From NCBI RefSeq assembly GCF_036365525.1, contig NC_090399.1, positions 51,988,430 through 52,052,429 of the forward strand: a DNA stretch of 64,000 nt. The letters are read 5' to 3'. Below are positions 7,426-63,861 of the stretch, one piece after another. The DNA is from Heterodontus francisci (lineage: Eukaryota). The notes under the pieces were generated by a model that saw only the letters and a list, made by a program, of their open reading frames with translations, ran no database searches and was not told where the DNA came from. How positions within the stretch are numbered: position 1 is the first letter of the stretch; every line of letters begins with the position of its first letter. A program made the translations under genes and the position numbers.

Positions 7426-10400
7426 GCATTCGGAAACACCGGGAAACGGCATTCGGAAACGCCGGGAAACGGCATTCGGAAACGCCGGGAAACGGCATTC
7501 GGAAACGCCGGGAAACGGCATTCGGAAACGCCGGGAAACGGCATTCGGAAACGCCGGGAAACGGCATTCGGAAACGCCGGGAAACGGCATTCGGAAACGC
7601 CGGGAAACGGCATTCGGAAACAGCATTGAAAAACACTGGGAAACAGCATTCAGAAACAGCATTCAGAAACAGCATTCAGAAACAGCATTCAGAAACAGCA
7701 TTCAGAAATACCGGGAAACAGCAATCGGAAACAGCAATCGGAAACAGCAATCGGAAATACTGGCAAACAGCATTCAGAAACAGCATTCAGAAACACCGAG
7801 AAACAGCATTCAGAAACACCGGGAAACAGCATTCAGAAACACCGGGAAACAGCATTCAGAAACACCGGGAAACAGCATTCAGAAAGAGCATTCAGAAACA
7901 CCGGGAAACAGAATTCAGAAAGAGCATTCAGAAACACCAGGAAACAGAATTCAGAAACTGCATTCAGAAACACCGGGAAACAGCATTCAGAAACACCAGG
8001 AAACAGCATTCAGAAACACCGGGAAACAGCATTCAGAAACACCGGGAAACAGCTTTTAGAAACAGCATTCAGAAACACCGGGAAACAGCATTCAGAAACT
8101 CCAGGAAACAGCGTTCAGAAATACCGGCAAACAGCATTCAGAAACACCGGGAAACAGCATTCAGAAACAGCATTCAGAAACACCGGGAAACAGCATTCAG
8201 AAACACCGGGAAACAGCATTCAGAAACAGCATTCAGAAACACCGGTAAACAGCATTCGGAAACAGCATTCAGAAACACCGGGAAACAGCATTCAGAAACA
8301 CCGGGAAACAGCATTCAGAAACAGCATTCAGAAACACCGGGAAACAGCATTCAGAAACACCAGGAAACAGCATTCAGAAACAGCATTCAGAAACACCTGG
8401 AAACAGCATTCAGAAACACCGGGAAACAGCTTTTAGAAACAGCATTCAGAAATACTGTGAAACAGCATTCAGAAACAGCATTCAGAAACTCCAGGAAACA
8501 GCGTTCAGAAACACCGGGAAACAGCATTCAGAAATACCGGCAAACAGCATTCAGAAACACCGGGAAACAGCATTCAGAAACACCGGCAAACAGCATTCAG
8601 AAACACCGGCAAACAGCATTCAGAAACACCGGCAAACAGCATTCAGAAACACCGGCAAACAGCATTCAGAAACACCGGCAAACAGCATTCAGAAACACCG
8701 GCAAACAGCATTCAGAAACACCGGCAAACAGCATTCAGAAACACCGGCAAACAGCATTCAGAAACACCGGCAAACAGCATTCAGAAACACCGGCAAACAG
8801 CATTCAGAAACTGCATTCAGAAACACCGGGAAACTGCATTCAGAAACACCGGGAAACTGCATTCAGAAACACCGGGAAACAGCATTCAGAAACACCGGGA
8901 AACAGCATTCAGAAACATCGGGAAACAGCATTCAGAAAGAGCATTCAGAAACACCGGGAAACAGAATTCAGAAACTGCATTCAGAAACACCGGGAAACAG
9001 AATTCAGAAACTGCATTCAGAAACACCGGGAAACAGCATTCAGAAACACCGGGAAACAGCATTCAGAAACACCGGGAAACAGAATTCAGAAACAGCATTC
9101 AGAAACGCCGGGAAACAGCATTCAGAAACACCGGGAAACAGAATTCAGAAACAGCATTCAGAAACGCCGGGAAACAGCATTCAGAAACGCCGGGAAACAG
9201 CATTCAGAAACACCGGGAAACAGCATTCAGAAACACCGGGAAACAGCATTCAGAAACACCGGCAAACAGCATTCAGAAACACCGGCAAACAGCATTCAGA
9301 AACACCGGCAAACAGCATTCAGAAACACCGGCAAACAGCATTCAGAAACACCGGCAAACAGCATTCAGAAACACCGGCAAACAGCATTCAGAAACACCGG
9401 CAAACAGCATTCAGAAACACCGGCAAACAGCATTCAGAAACACCGGCAAACAGCATTCAGAAACACCGGCAAACAGCATTCAGAAACACCGGCAAACAGC
9501 ATTCAGAAACACCGGCAAACAGCATTCAGAAACACCGGCAAACAGCATTCAGAAACACCGGCAAACAGCATTCAGAAACACCGGCAAACAGCATTCAGAA
9601 ACACCGGCAAACAGCATTCAGAAACACCGGCAAACAGCATTCAGAAACACCGGCAAACAGCATTCAGAAACACCGGCAAACAGCATTCAGAAACACCGGC
9701 AAACAGCATTCAGAAACACCGGCAAACAGCATTCAGAAACACCGGCAAACAGCATTCAGAAACACCGGCAAACAGCATTCAGAAACACCGGCAAACTGCA
9801 TTCAGAAACACCGGCAAACTGCATTCAGAAACAGCATTCAGAAACGCCGGGAAACAGCATTCAGAAACGCCGGGAAGCAGCATTCAGAAACGCCGGCAAA
9901 CAGCATTCAGAAACGCCGGCAAACAGCATTCAGAAACGCCGGCAAACAGCATTCAGAAACGCCGGCAAACAGCATTCAGAAACGCCGGCAAACAGCATTC
10001 AGAAACGCCGGCAAACAGCATTCAGAAACGCCGGCAAACAGCATTCAGAAACGCCGGCAAACAGCATTCAGAAACGCCGGCAAACAGCATTCAGAAACAC
10101 CGGCAAACAGCATTCAGAAACACCGGCAAACAGCATTCAGAAACACCGGCAAACAGCATTCAGAAACAGCATTCAGAAACACCGGGAAACAGCATTCAGA
10201 AACACCGGGAAACTGCATTCAGAAACACCGGGAAACTGCATTCAGAAACACCGGGAAACTGCATTCAGAAACACCGGGAAACTGCATTCAGAAACACCGG
10301 GAAACAGCATTCAGAAACACCGGGAAACAGCATTCAGAAACACCGGGAAACAGCATTCAGAAACACCGGGAAACAGCATTCAGAAACACCGGGAAACAGC

Positions 10401-13400
10401 ATTCAGAAACACTGGCAAAGTGCATTCAGAAACGCCGGCAAACTGCATTCAGAAACGCCGGCAAACAGCATTCAGAAACGCCGGGAAGCAGCATTCAGAA
10501 ACGCCGGCAAACAGCATTCAGAAACGCCGGCAAACAGCATTCAGAAACGCCGGCAAACAGCATTCAGAAACGCCGGCAAACAGCATTCAGAAACGCCGGC
10601 AAACAGCATTCAGAAACGCCGGCAAACAGCATTCAGAAACGCCGGCAAACAGCATTCAGAAACGCCGGCAAACAGCATTCAGAAACGCCGGCAAACAGCA
10701 TTCAGAAACGCCGGCAAACAGCATTCAGAAACGCCGGCAAACAGCATTCAGAAACACCGGCAAACAGCATTCAGAAACAGCATTCAGAAACACCGGGAAA
10801 CAGCATTCAGAAACACCGGGAAACTGCATTCAGAAACACCGGGAAACTGCATTCAGAAACACCGGGAAACTGCATTCAGAAACACCGGGAAACTGCATTC
10901 AGAAACACCGGGAAACAGCATTCAGAAACACCGGGAAACAGCATTCAGAAACACCGGGAAACAGCATTCAGAAACACCGGGAAACAGCATTCAGAAACAC
11001 CGGGAAACAGCATTCAGAAACACTGGCAAAGTGCATTCAGAAACACCGGCAAACTGCATTCAGAAACACCGGCAAACTGCATTCAGAAACACCGGCAAAC
11101 TGCATTCAGAAACACTATTCAGTAACACCGAGAAACAACATTCTGAAACACCGGGAAACAGCATTCAGAAATACTGTGAAACAGCATTCAGAAACACTGT
11201 GAAACAGCATTCAGAAACAGCATTCAGAAACACCGGGAAACTGCATTCAGAAACTGCATTCAGAAACACCGGGAAACTGCATTCAGAAACACCGGGAAAC
11301 TGCATTCAGAAACACTGTGAAACAGCATTCAGAAACAGCATTCAGAAACGCCGGGAAACAGCATTCAGAAACAGCATTCAGAAAGAGCATTCAGAAACAC
11401 CGGGAAGCAGCATTCAGAAACTGCATTCAGAAACACCGGGAAACTGCATTCAGAAACACCCGGAAACTGCATTCAGAAACACCGGGAAACAGCATTCAGA
11501 AACTGCATTCAGAAACACCGGGAAACAGCATTCAGAAACTGCATTCAGAAACACTGTGAAACAGCATTCAGAAACAGCATTCAGAAACGCCGGGAAACAG
11601 CATTCAGAAACTCCGGGAAACAGCATTCAGGTACAGCATTCAGAAACAGCATTCAGAAACACCGGGAAACAGCATTCAGAAATACTGTGAAACAGCATTC
11701 AGAAACAGTATTCAGTAACACCGGGAAACAGCATTCAGAAATACTGTGAAACAGCATTCAGAAATACTGTGAAACAGCATTCAGAAATACTGTGAAACAG
11801 CATTCAGAAACACTGTGAAACAGCATTCAGAAACAGCATTCAGAAACTGTATTCAGAAACACCGGGAAACAGCTTTTAGAAACAGCATTCAGAAATACTG
11901 TGAAACAGCATTCAGAAACAGCATTCAGAAACTCCAGGAAACAGCGTTCAGAAACACCGGCAAACAGCATTCAGAAATACCGGCAAACAGCATTCAGAAA
12001 CACCGGGAAACAGCATTCAGAAACAGCATTCAGAAACAACGGCAAACAGCATTCAGAAACACCGGCAAACAGCATTCAGAAACACCGGCAAACAGCATTC
12101 AGAAACAGCATTCAGAAACACCGGCAAACAGCATTCAGAAACAGCATTCAGAAACACCGGCAAACAGCATTCAGAAACACCGGCAAACAGCATTCAGAAA
12201 CACCGGCAAACAGCATTCAGAAACACCGGCAAACAGCATTCAGAAACACCGGCAAACTGCATTCAGAAACACCGGGAAACTGCATTCAGAAACACCGGGA
12301 AACTGCATTCAGAAACACCGGGAAACTGCATTCAGAAACACCGGGAAACAGCATTCAGAAACATCGGGAAACAGCATTCAGAAAGAGCATTCAGAAACAC
12401 CGGGAAACAGAATTCAGAAACTGCATTCAGAAACACCGGGAAACAGAATTCAGAAACTGCATTCAGAAACACCGGGAAACAGCATTCAGAAACACCGGGA
12501 AACAGAATTCAGAAACAGCATTCAGAAACGCCGGGAAACAGCATTCAGAAACACCGGGAAACAGAATTCAGAAACAGCATTCAGAAACGCCGGGAAACAG
12601 CATTCAGAAACACCGGGAAACAGCATTCAGAAACACCGGCAAACAGCATTCAGAAACACCGGCAAACAGCATTCAGAAACACCGGCAAACAGCATTCAGA
12701 AACACCGGCAAACAGCATTCAGAAACACCGGCAAACAGCATTCAGAAACACCGGCAAACTGCATTCAGAAACACCGGCAAACTGCATTCAGAAACACCGG
12801 CAAACTGCATTCAGAAACAGCATTCAGAAACACCGGGAAACTGCATTCAGAAACACCGGGAAACTGCATTCAGAAAGAGCATTCAGAAACACCGGGAAAC
12901 TGCATTCAGAAACTGCATTCAGAAACACCGGGAAACTGCATTCAGAAACTGCATTCAGAAACACCGGGAAACAGCATTCAGAAACTGCATTCAGAAACAC
13001 CGGGAAACAGCATTCAGAAACAGCATTCAGAAACTCCAGGAAACAGCGTTCAGAAACACCGGCAAACAGCTTTTAGAAACAGCATTCAGAAACACCGGGA
13101 AACAGCATTCAGAAACAGCATTCAGAAACGCCGGCAAACAGCATTCAGAAACGCCGGCAAACAGCATTCAGAAACGCCGGCAAACAGCATTCAGAAACGC
13201 CGGCAAACAGCATTCAGAAACGCCGGCAAACAGCATTCAGAAACGCCGGCAAACAGCATTCAGAAACACCGGCAAACAGCATTCAGAAACACCGGGAAAC
13301 AGCATTCAGAAACACCGGGAAACAGCATTCAGAAAGAGCATTCAGAAACACCGGGAAACTGCATTCAGAAACTGCATTCAGAAACACCGGGAAACTGCAT

Positions 13401-16400
13401 TCAGAAACTGCATTCAGAAACACCGGGAAACTGCATTCAGAAACTGCATTCAGAAACACCGGGAAACAGCATTCAGAAACAGCATTCAGAAACTCCAGGA
13501 AACAGCGTTCAGAAACACCGGCAAACAGCTTTTAGAAACAGCATTCAGAAACACCGGGAAACAGCATTCAGAAACAGCATTCAGAAACGCCGGCAAACAG
13601 CATTCAGAAACGCCGGCAAACAGCATTCAGAAACGCCGGCAAACAGCATTCAGAAACGCCGGCAAACAGCATTCAGAAACGCCGGCAAACAGCATTCAGA
13701 AACACCGGCAAACAGCATTCAGAAACACCGGGAAACAGCATTCAGAAACACCGGGAAACAGCATTCAGAAACACCGGGAAACAGCATTCAGAAACAGCAT
13801 TCAGAAACACCGGCAAACAGCATTCAGAAACACCGGCAAACAGCATTCAGAAACTGCATTCAGAAACACCGGGAAACAGCATTCAGAAACAGCATTCAGA
13901 AACACCGGCAAACAGCATTCAGAAACACCGGCAAACAGCATTCAGAAACAGCATTCAGAAACACCGGGAAACAGCATTCAGAAACACCGGCAAACTGCAT
14001 TCAGAAACACCGGCAAACTGCATTCAGAAACACCGGCAAACTGCATTCAGAAACACCGGCAAACTGCATTCAGAAACACCGGCAAACTGCATTCAGAAAC
14101 ACCGGCAAACTGCATTCAGAAACACCGGCAAACTGCATTCAGAAACACCGGCAAACTGCATTCAGAAACACCGGCAAACTGCATTCAGAAACACCGGCAA
14201 ACTGCATTCAGAAACACCGGCAAACTGCATTCAGAAACACCGGCAAACTGCATTCAGAAACACCGGCAAACTGCATTCAGAAACACCGGCAAACTGCATT
14301 CAGAAACACCGGCAAACTGCATTCAGAAACAGTATTCAGTAACACCGAGAAACAACATTCTGAAACACCGAGAAACAACATTCTGAAACACCGGGAAACA
14401 GCATTCAGAAACACTGTGAAACAGCATTCAGAAACACTGTGAAACAGCATTCAGAAACACTGTGAAACAGCATTCAGAAACACTGTGAAACAGCATTCAG
14501 AAACACCGGGAAGCAGCATTCAGAAACTGCATTCAGAAACACCGGGAAACTGCATTCAGAAACACCGGGAAACTGCATTCAGAAACACCGGGAAACAGCA
14601 TTCAGAAACTGCATTCAGAAACACTGTGAAACAGCATTCAGAAACAGCATTCAGAAACGCCGGGAAACAGCATTCAGAAACAGCATTCAGAAACAGCATT
14701 CAGAAACAGCATTCAGAAAGAGCATTCAGAAACACCGGGAAGCAGCATTCAGAAACTGCATTCAGAAACACCGGGAAACTGCATTCAGAAACACCGGGAA
14801 ACTGCATTCAGAAACACCGGGAAACAGCATTCAGAAACTGCATTCAGAAACACCGGGAAACAGCATTCAGAAACTGCATTCAGAAACACTGTGAAACAGC
14901 ATTCAGAAACAGCATTCAGAAACGCCGGGAAACAGCATTCAGAAACTCCGGGAAACAGCATTCAGGTACAGCATTCAGAAACAGCATTCAGAAACACCGG
15001 GAAACAGCATTCAGAAATACTGTGAAACAGCATTCAGAAACAGTATTCAGTAACACCGGGAAACAGCATTCAGAAATACTGTGAAACAGCATTCAGAAAT
15101 ACTGTGAAACAGCATTCAGAAACACTGTGAAACAGCATTCAGAAACAGCATTCAGAAACTGTATTCAGAAACACCAGGAAACAGCATTCAGAAACAACAT
15201 TCAGAAACACCGGGAAACAGCATTCAGAAACACCCAGAAACAGCATTCAGAAACACCCAGAAACAGCATTCAGAAACAGCATTCAGGTACACCGGGAAAC
15301 AGCATTCAGAAACTCCGGGAAACAGCATTCAGAAACTCCGGGAAACAGCATTCAGGTACAGTATTCAGAAACACCGAGAAACAGCATTCAGAAACCGCAT
15401 TCAGAAACACCGAGAAACAGCATTCAGAAACCGCATTCAGAAACACCGGGAAACAGCATTCAGAAACACCGGGAAACAGCATTCAGAAATACTGTGAAAC
15501 AGCATTCAGAAACAGTATTCAGTAACACCGAGAAACAACATTCTGAAACACCGGGAAACAGCATTCAGAAATACTGTGAAACAGCATTCAGAAACACCGG
15601 GAAACAGCATTCAGAAACACCGAGAAACAGCATTCAGAAACGGTATTCAGAAACACCGAGAAACAACATTCAGAAACACCGGGAAACAGCATTCAGAAAT
15701 ATTGTGAAGCAGCAGTCAGAAACTCCGGGAAACAGCATTCAGAAATACTGTGAAACAGCATTCAGAAACAGTATTCAGTAACACCGAGAAACAACATTCT
15801 GAAACACCGGGAAACAGCATTCAGAAATACTGTGAAACAGCATTCAGAAACAGCATTCAGAAACACCGAGAAACAGCATTCAGAAACACCGAGAAACAAC
15901 ATTCAGAAACACCGGGAAACAGCATTCAGAAATACTGTGAAGCAGCAGTCAGAAACTCCGGGAAACAGCATTCAGAAATACTGTGAAACAGCATTCAGAA
16001 ACAACATTCAGAAACACCGGGAAACAGCATTCAGAAATACTGTGAAGCAGCAGTCAGAAACTCCGGGAAACAGCATTCAGAAATACTGTGAAACAGCATT
16101 CAGAAACAACATTCAGTAACACCGAGAAACAACATTCAGAAACTCCGGGAAACAGCATTCAGAAATACTGAGAAACAGCATTCAGAAACAGTATTCAGTA
16201 ACACCGAGAAACAACATTCTGAAACACCGGGAAACAGCATTCAGAAACACCGGGAAACAGCATTCAGAAACAGCATTCAGAAACACCGAGAAACAGCATT
16301 CGGAAATACTGTGAAGCAGCATTCAGAAACACCGGGAAACAGCATTCAGAAATACTGTGAAACAGCATTCAGAAACAGCATTCAGAAACTCCGGGAAACA

Positions 16401-46698: not shown

Positions 46699-46720
46699 TT
46701 CTGCCCAAAATGGACATTGC

Positions 46721-46792
46721 CTCCCTGTTGGGGAATTGAACCCCAGTCTCCCATGTGACAGGTGGGGATACTGACCACTATACTAATGAGGA
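46721..46792 (-). pseudogene. tRNA-Asp(GTC) pseudogene
   Basis: 72 nt TCCTCATTAGTATAGTGGTCAGTATCCCCACCTGTCACATGGGAGACTGGGGTTCAATTCCCCAACAGGGAG, colinear with vertebrate tRNA-Asp-GTC, with CpG-type transitions. Confidence 0.9.
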
Positions 46793-47109
46793 AATGATCT
46801 TCTGAGAAGAAATTAAGTAGACTGTGCCTTTATTCTCCTTTTACAAGAATGAGGTGATCTCATTCTAACATGGAAAATTCTTACAGGGCTTGATGAGGAG
46901 GATGATTTCCCTGGGCTGGGGAGTCCAGAACCAGGGGACCTGGTCTCAGAATAAGGGGTAGGCAATTTAGGACTGGGATGAAGAGGAATTTCTTCACTCA
47001 GGGTGTGCTTGGAATTTTCTGTCTGAAGGCTGTGGCAGCTCAGTTGAGTATGTTATGCTTGATTTGTTTCTATGTATTTAAAAACATCCAGGTATATGGA
47101 AATAGTGCA

Positions 47110-57403: not shown

Positions 57404-57879
57404 TGTTGGATCCCATTAGTTGCACGAAGACTAAGTCTGACTGTAGCTTTAAGAAACTTTATTGCAGTATGAAATAGTTACATCAGCAAAGCGAACAACT
57501 CCTGGGCTCTCCTCTCTTCTCTCTTCCTCCTTCTCTCCTGCCTGAGCAGTGAAAATCAAGCCCTTCATATAGTTCATACACATCAGTGACAGCCACTTTG
57601 TTCCCAATTGGTTTGCAAACTTTGCAGGTTCTTGGTGTCATGGCCTGATTGGGGTACTGCTTTGTCAATTTGTCTCACCACCTTATTCTAGCAGTTTCTC
57701 ATCGTCCTATCTCCTTGAACTGTTGGGCTGATAAACAATGGGTTATTAAAGTCTGCAGCTGTTCTGTTAGTTTCTGCTTCTACTGATGAGCTGTCTGTAC
57801 AGCACTGAAGTTACTTTATTATTTCTGATAAGCTTGAGCTGCAGCTCACTTTAAATGTTCCCATTGTTCTGTCCCCACA
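57404..57879 (-). mobile_element. 3' LTR of the endogenous retrovirus
   Basis: Minus strand: PPT AAAGGGGAG then TGTGGGG...TCCAACA; CCAAT boxes (~57608, 57645), TATA-like TATATGAA (~57565), AATAAA (57458-57463). Confidence 0.85.
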
Positions 57880-58016
57880 GACTCCCCTTTGATTCTTCAA
57901 ACACTTTTAAGAATCATTTCCCTTGATCCCACCTAGGTGTCTTTAATGGTCTCTTTTTGTCGAGAAACAGCCTTCAACACCCGAAGGGGTCACACTCAAT
58001 ATGTTGCCTGCTTGTG

Positions 58017-58616
58017 CTACAGGAGGGGCCCGCGGGGGCTCTGTAAAGGCATAAGTTTTGCAGGGGCTTCATTTACTTGTTTACAACAACACTTAAGCAA
58101 AAACATCAAATACAGAATTACAATCATCACTAAAAACACCAAACCCTGTACCACTGAGGTCCCTATTGAGCCCAACCAACTGGGTGCCCAACTCCATAAG
58201 GTGTGTTGGGGGTTGTTTTAGCTTTTTCACTTCCTTTCAGATGTGTTCTGCCAGATTAAAGATTTCTTTGGAGCTATTGGGACCAGAATGCTGCACCTAC
58301 ATTCTGATCAGGACACATGTACCCACCCCCTGCCTTTCTGCTAGGAAAGAATCTAAGGCCATTCAGTTCTGGAGTCCTACTGTGTGGATAGCTACCAACT
58401 GGCACGTGTGCACATACCCAACAGCTGGAGAGGTTAGCTTCTTTGGTATATGTATAGGTCATATAAAGGAGAGTTAACATGTAATTCCCTGGACACTTGA
58501 TTAGTTCCCCCATGTGGACAAGTTTGGTTAGTCAAAAGTGAGCGACTACTTAAAATACATGCAAAGAAGATAATAAAAATTCTGAACATAGCAGCAATTA
58601 ATTGGCATTCAATCAC
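58017..58616 (-). pseudogene. env: ERV env remnant (gamma-type SU start fused to the TM anchor; large internal deletion)
   Basis: Signal MFRIFIIFFACIL; ANLSSCWVCAHVP; then LWSWAPSWLGSIGTSVVQGLVFLVMIVILYLMFLLKCCCK. Confidence 0.8.
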
Positions 58617-61600
58617 AGGTCGCTCATTTTATGTGAGGCGTGTAACCAGGCTTTCTTTCCTTCCACCTTAACTGCTGACTGGGTGGTCAGTAGCACTTGG
58701 AAAGGTCCCTCACACTTGGCGCCCAAAGGTTCTTTGTGTATTTTCTTCACGTAGACCCAGATTCCTGGGACGATGTCGTGCCCTCCTTCTGGGTCACCCC
58801 AGGCTGCCAATACCTGTAAGGAAGCAGAACTGATGGAGTTTGTTAGGTTCTGGCTATATTCTAGTAAAGCATCGCTCATCAGGTGACTATCAGCTTTTCG
58901 CAGATCAATTGTTCCTGGTAAAGACATGGGGCTCTGTTATTTCAAATGGGCTCAGGCCTGTAGTTCTGTTTGGGGTCGTTCTGATACTACACAGAACTAT
59001 CGGCAATCCCTGAGGCCACTTTATTCCTTCCTGGTGATACTTGGATAGTCGCTGCTTTAGAGTCTGATTCATTCGTTCCACTTGGTCTGATGACTGGGGA
59101 TGATGAGGACAATGTAAATCCCACGTAATGTTCAGTAGTCAACTGATTTCCTGACACTGCCTGTGAAATGAGTTCCTTGGTCAGTCGTTGCTGACCAGTA
59201 CTCCCCATCTGGGGATGTAATCCTTACACAGAACCTGAGCGGTGTGGTTGGCTGTGGCTCTTCTGGCTGGGATGCCCTCTACCCATCTAGAAAATTTGTC
59301 AACGATGACTAAAATGCCAGTGTATCCCTGGCAAGGTGGGAGAGTGATATAGTCGACTTGTAAGCACTGGAATGGGCTGGCTGGAGCAGGGGCTTTTAGT
59401 TGAGGCATCATCATGGTGGGTCCTGGATTGTTTCTCTGACAGACCACACAGCAGTCAGCTACCAGCTGTGTGTTTTTTGAACCCTTGGCCCCACCGGCTT
59501 TTCTGGAACCGTGTGGTCATCTGTTGCGGGGCTAGGTGTGAATTTGTTGGGCTAAAAAGGGCATCAGCGCCTGTGGTGCGACAGGTTTCTCAGTGTCCTT
59601 TTTGTCTCCAGATGCTGTCGCCACATATCTTCATCCCTGCTTCTATCCAGATCCATTTTTCATCTTTGGAACATTCACTCTGCATCACTTGTCGGTCTTG
59701 TCAGATGGGACGCATTCAGTTTACATATTTTGTGTCTGGGGGATCACCCTGTGAGGCGGCTGCCTTGTCAGCCAGGGCATTCCCCTTTGCCTCTATGGTG
59801 TTTCATGTGGGCTTTCTATTTCAAGATAGATACCTTTTGTGGCAATTGCATGGCCTCCAGTACGTCTCTGACCTCTTTCCCATTTCAAATAGGTGTACCA
59901 GCAGCAGTGAGAAATCCTCTTTTGCGCCACAGCTGACCAAAGTCATGAGAAACTCCAAAAGCATACTGTGAGTCTGTGTAAATATTAGCTGTCTTCCCCT
60001 CTGCTATTCGACATGCTTCTGACAGGGCTCACAGGTCGGCTTGTTGGGCTGATGTCCCTGAAGGCAGGCATCCCACTTCACAACTTCATGTAAGGTTGTA
60101 ACTGCCCATCCTGCTTTCTGTGTACTGTTATCAACAAAGGATGAGCTGTCTGTGAATAGGATTAAATCTGGGTTGAGCAATGCTTCCTATGCCATTAGGG
60201 TTACCTCCTCTGTTTCTTCCATAGTCTCCACACAATAATGTTTTTCCGTCTCTTCAGGCCATGGGAGCATAGTCGCCGGATTTACCGGGCTGGCCTGGAC
60301 AATGTGGAGATTGGGAGCCTCTAGGACTGTTGTCCATTGGGTCCATCTGGCTGCTGTCACTTGGGATAGTCTGTTCATAGCAGTGTGCGGACACTTAACG
60401 GTTAACTTTTGATCTAATACTAGACCTGCAGTAGCCATCACCACTTGGCATGTAGCTTTCTTAGCTCTTAAACAACCATCCCATCCTAGGGTGACTGTCC
60501 AGTTTTTTTGAATAGTATCCAATAGGGTGGCGCAGTGGTTAGCACCACAGCCTCACAGCTCCAGCGACCCGGGTTCAATTCTGGGCACTGCCTGTGGAGT
60601 TTGCAAGTTCTCCGTGTCTGTGGGTTTCCTCTGGGTGCTCCGGTTTCCTCCCACATGCCAAAAGACTTGCAGGTTGATGGGTTAATTGGGCATTATAAAT
60701 TGCCCCTAGTATAGGTAGGTGGTAGGGAAATATAGGGACAGGTGTGGTGGGAATATGGGATTAGTGTAGCATTAGTATAAATGGGTAGTTGGTCGGCACA
60801 GACTCGGTGGGCCGAAGGGCCTGTTTCAGTGCTGTATCTCTAAACTAAACTCAAACTCTGGTCTCTGTTTGTCCCCGTGCTCCTGTGTCAGTATGGCAGT
60901 CATATATCCCTCTTTTTTTCGTGTACAAACAGGGTAAATGGTTTCCTGTTGGGGATTCCCAGGGCTGGCGCTGAGCACAAAGCCCTCTAAGTTTTTGAAA
61001 GCTTCTTGTTCTTTGGTTAGGGTAACTGATTCTTTAGAGGCCCACTTTCCCTTCAAGAGATTGGTTAATGGTCGAGTCAGCTGGGTGTAGGAGTTGATCC
61101 AGTTTCTGTTGAAGTTACACAAACCCAAAAAGGACTTAAGCTCCTGGATAGTGGTGGGCAGTTTGGCAGCTCGAATGGCGTCGGTCCTGTCCTGTCCTGG
61201 GTGAGTTCTCTCCTTCCTTTTGCAATCTTTTGTCCCAGGTACATGACCTCTCCTTCTGCTATCTGTGCTTTGTCAATACTGGCTTTGTGTCCTCTCTGAT
61301 GAAGGTGGTTCAGCAGGGTACGCAGATCTTGTTCGTGCTGTTCTTCTGTCTCAGAGGCTAACAGAATGTCGTCCATGTACTGAATGACCATGGAGTACAT
61401 GGAAGGTAACTCCCTCAAATGGTTTTGTAGGGCCATATGAAATACCGTGGGGCTGTTGTGGAAACCCTGTGGCAGGCAAGTCCAGGTGTACTGTTGTATG
61501 GTAAAGGTGAACCACAGTTGAACCTTGGGTGCCAGTGGCACCGACCAAAATCTGTTGGCTATATCGATAACAGAGAACCATTTGTGTTCTGGCTTCAGGG

Positions 61601-62310
61601 CATTAAATACCGTGGAGGGGTCAGCTACCAGAGGGGCCTTTTGATCAATACGCTGGTTAGCCTTTCTATAGTCGACAGTAAGCCACCAGATCCTGTTTGG
61701 TTTCTGTACTGGCTACACAGGGCTGTTTGAGGTACTGTGTGTTTTAACCAGCACGCCTCGCTCCTCTAGCTGTCTAATTACAGGTAGGATTCATGCAATA
61801 GATGTTTGACTGGGGTATTTAGTACAGGGTGGAGGAATCTTGTCAACGTTGCTGGTTCCATCTGGAGTAGCCCACAATCGTTCTTATCCTGGGCCCATAT
61901 TGGGTGCTCCCTCAGCTGCTCTTTCTTCAAACTTCTGATAGACCAAGTTACCTGGCTGCCTTCGAAATGCAACGAGGAGTTCAGCTAGGTGAGAACATAC
62001 ATACTGAGAAGGGCTTGTCCACGGGACCTATCCAGACCAGTGTTATCAATTCATGTGGACCAAGACCAATGCGTACGGGCTGGGCCCTCTTAATTACCAA
62101 CCCATTGCCCCCAGCTCCGTGAGCTGTTTTAGTCTTACCGTCCATCGGTAGGGAGTTTCTGTATTGAGGGAGGCACATAAATTCGGCTCCGGTATCCAAT
62201 CGGCATTCTACGTCTTGGTCGCCCACCCTCGCATTTACATACAATCCATCTTTTCTATGTTCTATTAGAGCCAGGAGAGGTGCCAAAAAAGTGAGGGAGG
62301 GCTCCTCTAG
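58613..62310 (-). pseudogene. pol: ERV pro-pol (PR, RT, tether, RNase H, IN) with multiple frameshifts and stops
   Basis: LDTGA; LPQGFHNSP...QYMDD; LILFTD, ANIYTDSQYAFG; LQVDYI...IVDKFSRWVE; EGPFQVLLTT. Confidence 0.92.
60524..60857 (+). mobile_element. HE1/V-SINE-like SINE inserted in the ERV pol
   Basis: Splits the ...KQRP|IGYYSKKLD motif. Confidence 0.9.
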
Positions 62311-63861
62311 TTTTTTGTCACATCGAGTAAGGAGGACATCTTCTGTTGCTGGGGTGTCAACTCTTTGAACTTCTCAGAGGTCGTTGCCATCAGTGGAGGG
62401 AGCCAGTTTGGGTGCCGGGTTGCATCCTTGGCGTCCTCTGCTTCGTCCTCTCTCTTTACATGTCTTAGCCCAATGGCCTTCCTTCCCGCAGTAATAACAG
62501 GGGCCGGATCGCCTATCTTGTTCTTTGTCAGGATCTTTCGGTACTCTATCCGTCTGCAGGGCTTGAAGCTTGACTCCCATATCCCTGTCCAGCTGAGCGC
62601 ATCTGTCAATTAACTGAGTATTTTACTCTTACTGCGTCCCACTCCGGTAGGGTGGCCTGCAGTATTTTAGACAATTCTGGCTTTAGTCCAGCAACAAAAG
62701 CCTGTTTTTAAGGGTCCAAAACTGGTGTCGTCTCGATCCTCTGGAGTAGGGTCATCCATCCCTGAGTATTCCACCCAGGTGGACCTAAACCTCTTCATAC
62801 TCCTGCACTTCGAGTTCTTCTGACAGGCTGCAATTTTGCCCCAGTCTGTTTTTGCAGGACAAAACTCTTGCAACCATGTGTTAATCACCATCCATCTGGC
62901 ATCTAGTAGTTGACAATCTTCACCCAAAGCAGTTTGGACCTCTCTCCTTGGCTTTCGGCTCGCTCACCTGGGCACCATTACGGTCAGAATCTGTACCCTG
63001 TCCCATGGATGGAGATTGTAAATTCCTTTTTAATTGTTCCAGCTGCTCCCATGTTTTCAGACCCCCTTTCTTCAGGTCAGGCAATCTTGTGGACCACTTG
63101 TCGATTTTTCTCGGGCAGCCGGGAAGTGTGTCCAGTACGTGTTGTGCTCGGCCGCGGTGACCTTGTTACCGTCCACAGTCCTCTTTTCTGTCTTGACCTT
63201 AACGCACTTCTGTTTAAGGGGAGCTAGTCACAGAAAAGGTAACCCATCATTGTCACTTTCTTCGCTGGAGGACTCTGCTTCCACTAGACCTGCTTCACGT
63301 AGTTGCATCTTCCGTTCCTTTTGTAACGACTTCAAACTCTGATACAAGTTAGTTGGAGGTGGTCGGCAGGGTTCGCAGAGCTGTCCCAATTCCTTCGGTT
63401 GGGTCGTCTGCTGGTCTTGTTTGTAGTTCTTTAATTTCAATCTCTAGCCTTTCCTTTTTCAGATTTTTCAATTTCTAACTGTTCCGATTTAAGCTTTTCC
63501 TTTTTCAGTTGTTCGCAGACTGCCTTCAGTTGATCCTTTGCACTAGTTAGGTCGCGATCATATTGGGCTTGTCACATAATCTCATTACGCTGCCGGATCT
63601 GGCCCATTACAGCTTGGGACCATTGGGTCTGTTCTCTCTCTCCTTTTTTAAATGGGTTGTTTTTCCCCAGACTCCCTTTATATCTTCCAAGGACCACTGT
63701 CCTGTGGAGGTGCCATATTTTTGCCCAATTTCGGTGTATATTTTAACCAGATTAAACTGTTGCTCTACATATTCTTTTAACTGCCGAAGTATTTCATCTT
63801 TGGGAACGTCAGGTGGGGCCCGCCCCCCCTTTGATGGTGGTTGGTTGCCTTCGACTGTCAT
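62307..63861 (-). pseudogene. gag: ERV gag remnant
   Basis: Charged coiled-coil-like N-terminal part, LHPWD..QIL, TDWGKIAACQ capsid-like motif, single zinc knuckle CYYCGKEGHWAKTC; 5' LTR and PBS lie beyond the window. Confidence 0.85.

Follow-up and report, generated by a model that had tools for sequence, protein, structure and literature searches.

The retroviral element and its gag/pro junction

The window, by which we mean the whole 64,000-nucleotide stretch of Heterodontus francisci DNA analysed here, carries near its far end a decayed endogenous retrovirus (ERV) that reads on the minus strand. Its recognizable parts are the following:

57404..57879, minus strand: 3' LTR (TG...CA), lying 3' of a purine tract
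57997..58589, minus strand: remnant of a gamma-type env, CWVC retained; ends approximate
58613..62316, minus strand: decayed pro-pol, with the protease DTG at 62196, reverse transcriptase (RT), RNase H as well as an integrase with an MLV-type C-terminal domain
62307..63861, minus strand: decayed gag, with several stops and frameshifts in the window copy
62458..62499, minus strand: single CCHC zinc knuckle of the nucleocapsid (PF00098, E 2.5e-6)

The 5' LTR lies just outside the window end, and the two LTRs differ at 35 of 454 aligned sites (7.7%). Behind the 5' LTR (L031:95-75, just beyond the window end) is a primer-binding site that we take to resemble the 3' end of tRNA-Ser, and the element is flanked by what is probably a target duplication of 4 bp. 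At about 60850-60525, pol is split between RT and RNase H by an insert of about 320 nt, which in our estimation resembles a SINE. The env remnant has lost about 660 nt of SU/TM, and beside this deletion a short inversion over the CX6CC region (58303-58280) has left GPECCTYI of that region on the opposite strand (plus-strand ORF 58097-58477). The original prediction had called this env gamma-type, a label that was upheld by the CXXC, ISD and CX6CC motifs of the family copies: among 13 other loci, CWIC or CWVC was found in 12, an ISD of the QNRMALD type in 10 and CX6CC in 11. Elsewhere in the window, ARAGORN reported a tRNA-Asp(GTC) gene or tRNA-derived repeat at 46719-46793 (minus strand), and a strong AT skew (0.5-0.6) extends over 8 kb at 8000-16000, suggesting a simple-sequence array.

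Three short features lie at the junction between gag and pro:

62374..62376, minus strand: TGA that stands in the knuckle frame only in the window copy, adjoins a private 2-nt deletion and mimics a read-through junction
62310..62316, minus strand: slippery heptamer A AAA AAC, in phase with the family's gag frame
62307..62309, minus strand: gag stop TAG, directly 3' of the heptamer

A -1 ribosomal frameshift signal had been predicted here. We indeed found A AAA AAC at 62316-62310 on the minus strand with TAG (62309-62307) immediately 3' of it, and from the heptamer the -1 frame runs without a stop via LEEPSLTF... to the protease DTGA at 62196, as had been claimed. The motif by itself is not rare, since the minus strand of the window contains AAAAAAC 9 times and 232 heptamers of the form X XXY YYZ. 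The caveat that accompanied the prediction, namely that gag is decayed with its knuckle in another frame and that a single indel could mimic such a signal, also turned out to be justified: private indels disturb the knuckle and pro frames of the window copy. The knuckle ORF (62622-62374) and pro share one frame there, split by the TGA at 62376-62374. This shared frame is a consequence of deletions private to the window copy, which lacks two bases near 62377 that are present in all 46 other subfamily-A copies (subfamilies are described below) and three bases near 62342 that are present in 44 of these 46. The private deletions also put the window heptamer out of phase with the knuckle. Read-through of the TGA, as the window copy alone might be read, was rejected on the -1 frame of the family together with these deletions. 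Contigs from four sequencing runs of three organisms covered the junction piecewise; among the matches listed, there was no difference or indel inside the heptamer or the TAG, which is weak evidence of their integrity. The sequencing runs listed on record as containing the sequence included no RNA run.

Reading frames, slip site and RNA structure across the family

At least 298 candidate copies were found in the 6.0-Gb genome. We worked with 104 distinct loci, which fall into four subfamilies (A-D) with 75-87% identity between subfamilies, and took the frame count on the 102 loci that cover the region from the knuckle to DTG. Relative to gag, pro lay in the -1 frame in 74 loci, in the +1 frame in 19 and in frame in 9; since some loci are near-identical duplicates, these copy counts are not fully independent. 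The -1 state was the commonest in each subfamily (43/48 in A, 12/22 in B, 10/20 in C and 9/12 in D). The heptamer was intact in 94 of the 102 loci and phased on gag in 87, and the TAG was kept in 92. Thus, neither of the two findings that the original prediction had named as speaking against it, an unconserved heptamer or a family in which one frame runs from gag across the TAG into pro, was what the copies showed. The 29 other loci nearest to the window copy gave a more uniform picture: in 28 of them gag ran to ...KN* and pro was -1 relative to the knuckle, and the heptamer and the TAG were each intact in 28. Of 50 loci in another set, which overlapped the first in part, 15 were unscorable; in the 35 others pro was -1 in 28, +1 in 4 and in frame in 3.

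Some of the 9 in-frame copies retain the TAG, and several of the frame exceptions accompany one-base changes, in both directions, in the length of a C run 3' of the stop. In subfamilies B and C this run lies just 3' of the TAG (corresponding to 62301-62295 in the window) and has both gained and lost single bases. In some copies these changes put the TAG in frame with pro, and mutation could possibly convert a frameshift layout into a read-through layout, or the reverse, by this route.

The column analyses used 99 of the 104 rows, five that were partial or misaligned having been removed. All 10 columns of the heptamer and TAG are fixed across subfamilies, as against 56% of the gag columns, and the 20 nt directly upstream of the heptamer are among the most variable positions. 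At the silent third positions of the gag frame, fixation was found at 3 of 3 within the heptamer versus 29 of 68 elsewhere in gag. In subfamily D the codon that precedes the heptamer encodes Ala instead of Thr, its final A being retained. Further downstream, RT was in the pro frame in 15 of the 26 scorable copies, which is the commonest state and indicates a -1/0 plan.

We then considered RNA structures that could stimulate slippage, for which the coordinates are:

62303..62309, minus strand: 7-nt spacer from the heptamer to the candidate stem
62291..62302, minus strand: candidate stimulatory stem, 5' arm (predicted)
62221..62232, minus strand: candidate stimulatory stem, 3' arm (predicted), closing a 58-nt loop
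62276..62308, minus strand: hairpin of the original prediction, disfavoured (1-nt spacer, broken in subfamily D, absent from folds)

It is possible to draw the hairpin originally proposed, but its start is only 1 nt from the heptamer, and its pairing probability was about 0 in 30 of 30 folded copies. It is disfavoured as a stimulator: one compensatory change occurs in subfamily C, but the pairing is lost in D. The other candidate is a GC-rich stem of 12 positions with one mismatch, which was predicted in 29 of the 30 folded copies and of which 11 of the 12 pairs are retained in 89-99 of the 99 rows. A distance of 6-9 nt between slip site and structure is given as typical in the available portion of PMC3835772. 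No compensatory change or covariation was seen in this stem among the 99 aligned rows, and the fixation of its third positions was not significant (7/8 versus 131/219, p 0.11; range p 0.09-0.22). The junction region folded little better than shuffled sequences (mean z -1.0, with 5 of the 30 copies below -2 and the window at -1.16), and inspection of the folds revealed no second stem that could form a pseudoknot. From these folding models, the GC-rich stem 7 nt downstream would be a better candidate for a stimulator than the hairpin first proposed. A 10-nt block in the loop of the candidate stem (62251-62242) is conserved across subfamilies as strongly as the heptamer.

Distant relatives and competing explanations

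A word-index protein search with the family Gag gave no matches; a full HMMER search with it gave 126. Among the 23 knuckle-bearing matches at E<=1e-10, 11 carry [KGLP]N at their C-terminus or one residue away from it, the reported endings being KN, GN or LN where 2.5% would be expected; the other 12 of these closest Gags have no ending of this type. The same ending was found in 3 of 44 weaker matches (Fisher p 2e-4), a comparison in which the p values overstate independence because the Gag matches are mutually related. Named hosts of the Gag relatives include the cyprinids Pimephales and Onychostoma, Callorhinchus and Scyliorhinus, with catsharks providing the best named relatives, and RT relatives with 50-62% identity were found in carp, characiforms, clupeiforms and gar. 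An Atlas search returned only chordate knuckle proteins and mixed Gag families, and scans of viral and metagenome contigs yielded no relative.

In one distant element, the end of Gag (...QQDQEKN*) and the leader of pro (...TTRPGKKL) fit frames 0 and -1 of one DNA over 16 residues, the next-best run in 244,524 comparisons being 7. The inputs to this test were the Gags P0178/P0181 and the protease-containing record P0106, which is identical to P0181 at 218 of 241 residues in Gag. The 16-residue overlap fixes A AAA AAC before the gag stop of the distant element. In an Astyanax Pol, FKL stands 38 residues before DTG and is the -1 reading of U UUA AAC; the distance from KKL to DTG is 38 residues in P0106 and 40 in the family of the window element. 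The G GGA AAC and U UUA AAC sites of the relatives were deduced from protein sequences only. Taken together, the comparisons make it appear that the slip site is common to a wider fish lineage, beyond the family to which the window copy belongs.

These observations can be set against three other accounts of the junction. That the family relied on read-through of an in-frame stop, as gamma- and epsilonretroviruses do, with the -1 offset a product of decay or the TGA of the window the true junction, we find hardly credible. It could appeal to the knuckle and pro of the window copy, which are in frame across a TGA, and to SSSV and ZFERV, which use UGA according to the accessible part of PMC13517186; it could also appeal to the 9 of 102 copies that are in frame and to the 17% of gamma-like ERVs with an apparent -1 offset, for which caution about indels is advised in the portion of PMC1224870 available to us. 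Yet the TGA state hinges on a deletion private to the window copy, and the in-frame copies are scattered, several of them with the bidirectional changes in C-run length. The -1 state, in turn, is commonest in all four subfamilies and the same -1 overlap is present in the distant element. Read-through is thus largely refuted by the frames of the nearest loci, the count on 102 copies and the overlap in the distant element.

Slippage of RNA polymerase or reverse transcriptase on the A run, rather than of the ribosome, is a recognised alternative mechanism (PMC5009743, in the part available) and has a run of six As to act on. We regard it as very improbable here: A6 is short, the length of the run is nearly invariant among copies, and the apparent G GGA AAC and U UUA AAC of the relatives suit tRNA re-pairing and not homopolymers. 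Expression of pro-pol in a foamy-like manner, from a spliced message or a start codon of its own, with the heptamer kept merely for the end residues of Gag, is improbable as well. There is indeed, 3' of the TAG in subfamilies A and B, a tract rich in pyrimidines with AG at its end, and the predicted Pol of some relatives starts at a Met 11-50 residues before DTG. The offset of the AG varies, however (+44 in 39/47 copies of A, +43 in 15/21 of B), the AG is missing from C and D, and the pro frame upstream of DTG has no Met in 77 of 90 copies. As for a constraint on the last residues of Gag, the synonymous positions of the heptamer are fixed, and K, G or L before N is the pattern predicted by a slip site.

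We conclude that the window contains the gag/pro junction of a decayed ERV and that its family very likely used programmed -1 ribosomal frameshifting on A AAA AAC to produce Gag-Pro-Pol, a reading suggested by enzyme genes that are one base out of step behind a conserved slip site. Most ribosomes would terminate at the TAG and give Gag. In a minority, the Lys and Asn tRNAs would slip back by one base and the ribosome would continue through protease, RT, RNase H and integrase in one frame, an HIV-like -1/0 plan, and the predicted GC-rich stem 7 nt downstream would probably assist the slippage. Evidence to the contrary includes the 28 of 102 copies that are not -1. At the family level, the frameshift interpretation of the original prediction is supported by this comparison of sequences.

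Placement of the family and comparison with known retroviruses

The RT of the window copy scored 110 bits to MLV, 90 to foamy virus, 43 to HERV-K and 38 to HIV, and the Pol of an intact relative (P0001) scored 458 bits to MLV versus 224 to foamy virus, a ratio of about 2. In controls, an epsilon-like Pol gave a similar ratio (392/203), which was not shared by a coelacanth sequence (231/233). In an RT tree the family formed a clade (support 100/99) that joined a group with Gag_p30-bearing gamma-like RTs as its sister (99/94), a position that is not secure because the tree, built on 61 of 123 RT domains, held no named reference virus (lokiretroviruses and SnRV were also absent) and because two sequences placed outside the class I group were equally MLV-leaning in PDB scores. 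FastTree on all 123 RT domains gave the same clade and the same join. The integrase has the MLV-type C-terminal domain (PF18697) and the nucleocapsid one knuckle (PF00098). For Gag, a single-sequence model was unusable (pLDDT 41); a model of a family copy (pLDDT 83) predicted a retroviral capsid for which MLV CA was the best match, with lentiviral capsids barely behind. The Gag profile search of the PDB gave a mixed result, and the family Gag has no Gag_p30 Pfam match.

The family thus shows the RT grouping, the gamma-type env, the one knuckle and the MLV-type integrase C-terminus of class I (gamma/epsilon-like) elements. We did not file it in Gammaretrovirus or Epsilonretrovirus, because it has a -1 junction instead of one-frame read-through. 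Three other assignments were rejected: class II (beta/delta/lenti) on RT scores of 38-43 bits to HIV and HERV-K versus 110 to MLV; lokiretrovirus because the env motifs are gamma-type rather than Mononegavirales-fusion-like; and class III ERV-L/ERV-S because a knuckle is present, gag-pol is not in frame and the RT joins the gamma-like group.

With the gamma- and epsilonretroviruses and related fish viruses (MLV, WDSV, SSSV, ZFERV) the family shares one knuckle, pro and pol in one frame and a gamma-type env; its Pol scores about twice as high to MLV as to foamy virus, its integrase C-terminus is of the MLV type and its capsid fold is nearest that of MLV. It differs from all four in that gag and pro are in different frames behind a slippery heptamer, and its Pol is about 33-39% identical to gamma-like matches. 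In the accessible text of PMC13517186, PMC3835772 and PMC1224870, these four viruses use in-frame read-through of UAG or UGA. A 2026 review (PMC13517186, seen in extracts) places all gamma-, epsilon- and unclassified fish retroviruses under read-through, with UGA in SSSV and ZFERV, UAG in SnRV, and read-through also in a toad ERV. Clades Jin and Mu of PMC6001957 also count among these nearest known systems. Likewise, gag-pol is in frame in XtERV-S (PMC8278194), anuran ERVs (bioRxiv 2024.07.05.601823) and Ovex1 (PMC2717909), as far as the excerpts of these papers go. Translational strategy has been treated as a global marker, with one frame in gamma/epsilon versus frameshifting in beta, in the portion of PMC1224870 at hand, in which the authors also caution that the apparent -1 offset of 17% of gamma-like ERVs may reflect post-integration indels.

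The signal itself resembles that of MMTV and HTLV-1/2, with A AAA AAC, a stop just after it and a predicted downstream structure at typical spacing, and the gag/pro slip site of MPMV is G GGA AAC (both from the available sections of PMC12789967 and PMC3835772). A AAA AAC, as well as G GGA AAC and U UUA AAC, ranks among the shiftiest heptamers in mammalian ribosomes, according to the part of PMC5009743 accessible to us. MMTV, HTLV-1/2 and MPMV are beta- and deltaretroviruses with a second frameshift between pro and pol, whereas pro-pol of our family is one frame; its Pol is also far from the class II RTs, as the HERV-K and HIV scores above indicate. The primer-binding site, which we presume to be tRNA-Ser-like, is a likeness to XtERV-S. 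That class III element, with a gamma-type env and a Ser primer-binding site, further resembles the family in an env with CWIC and a short SU, and differs in that its TGA is in frame, that it lacks a zinc knuckle and that it has a dUTPase (PMC8278194, as excerpted); the family, by contrast, combines a knuckle with a -1 junction and a Pol that leans towards MLV. Fish hosts, separate gag and pol genes and a dual RNase H region are shared with the lokiretroviruses and snakehead retrovirus; the env of the former is Mononegavirales-fusion-like in the available text of PMC7947760 and that of the family gamma-type, and SnRV uses UAG read-through (PMC13517186, same extracts) as opposed to a -1 junction. 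In the literature covered we met no description of a -1 gag/pro signal in a retrovirus on the class I side, although supplements, Repbase/Dfam and subscription papers may hold one; none appeared in the accessible portions of PMC7947760, PMC4422223, PMC5210030, PMC6001957, bioRxiv 2024.03.25.586437, PMC4255032 and PMC12789967.

The mechanism of frameshifting is textbook; what surprises is to meet it on the gamma/epsilon side of the tree. We consider it somewhat probable that the family belongs to an undescribed, deep-branching lineage on that side, present in sharks, chimaera, gar and teleosts, which uses -1 frameshifting on three interchangeable heptamers. If so, the textbook split between read-through in class I and frameshifting in class II would be broken. 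A conserved -1 signal in a lineage on the class I side would mean that the strategy switched at least once on this branch or that read-through came later, and read-through may be derived if the lineage and the other class I viruses are sister groups. The fish slip sites and candidate stimulators form a natural series that is reporter-ready. For annotation, a Gag ending in KN, GN or LN flags the lineage, and single decayed copies, such as that in the window, can mimic read-through. The NCBI protein cluster P0019 contains 3,937 near-identical Pol proteins of the clade of the window element, which points to a relative that was very active in recent times and had the same A AAA AAC at its junction.
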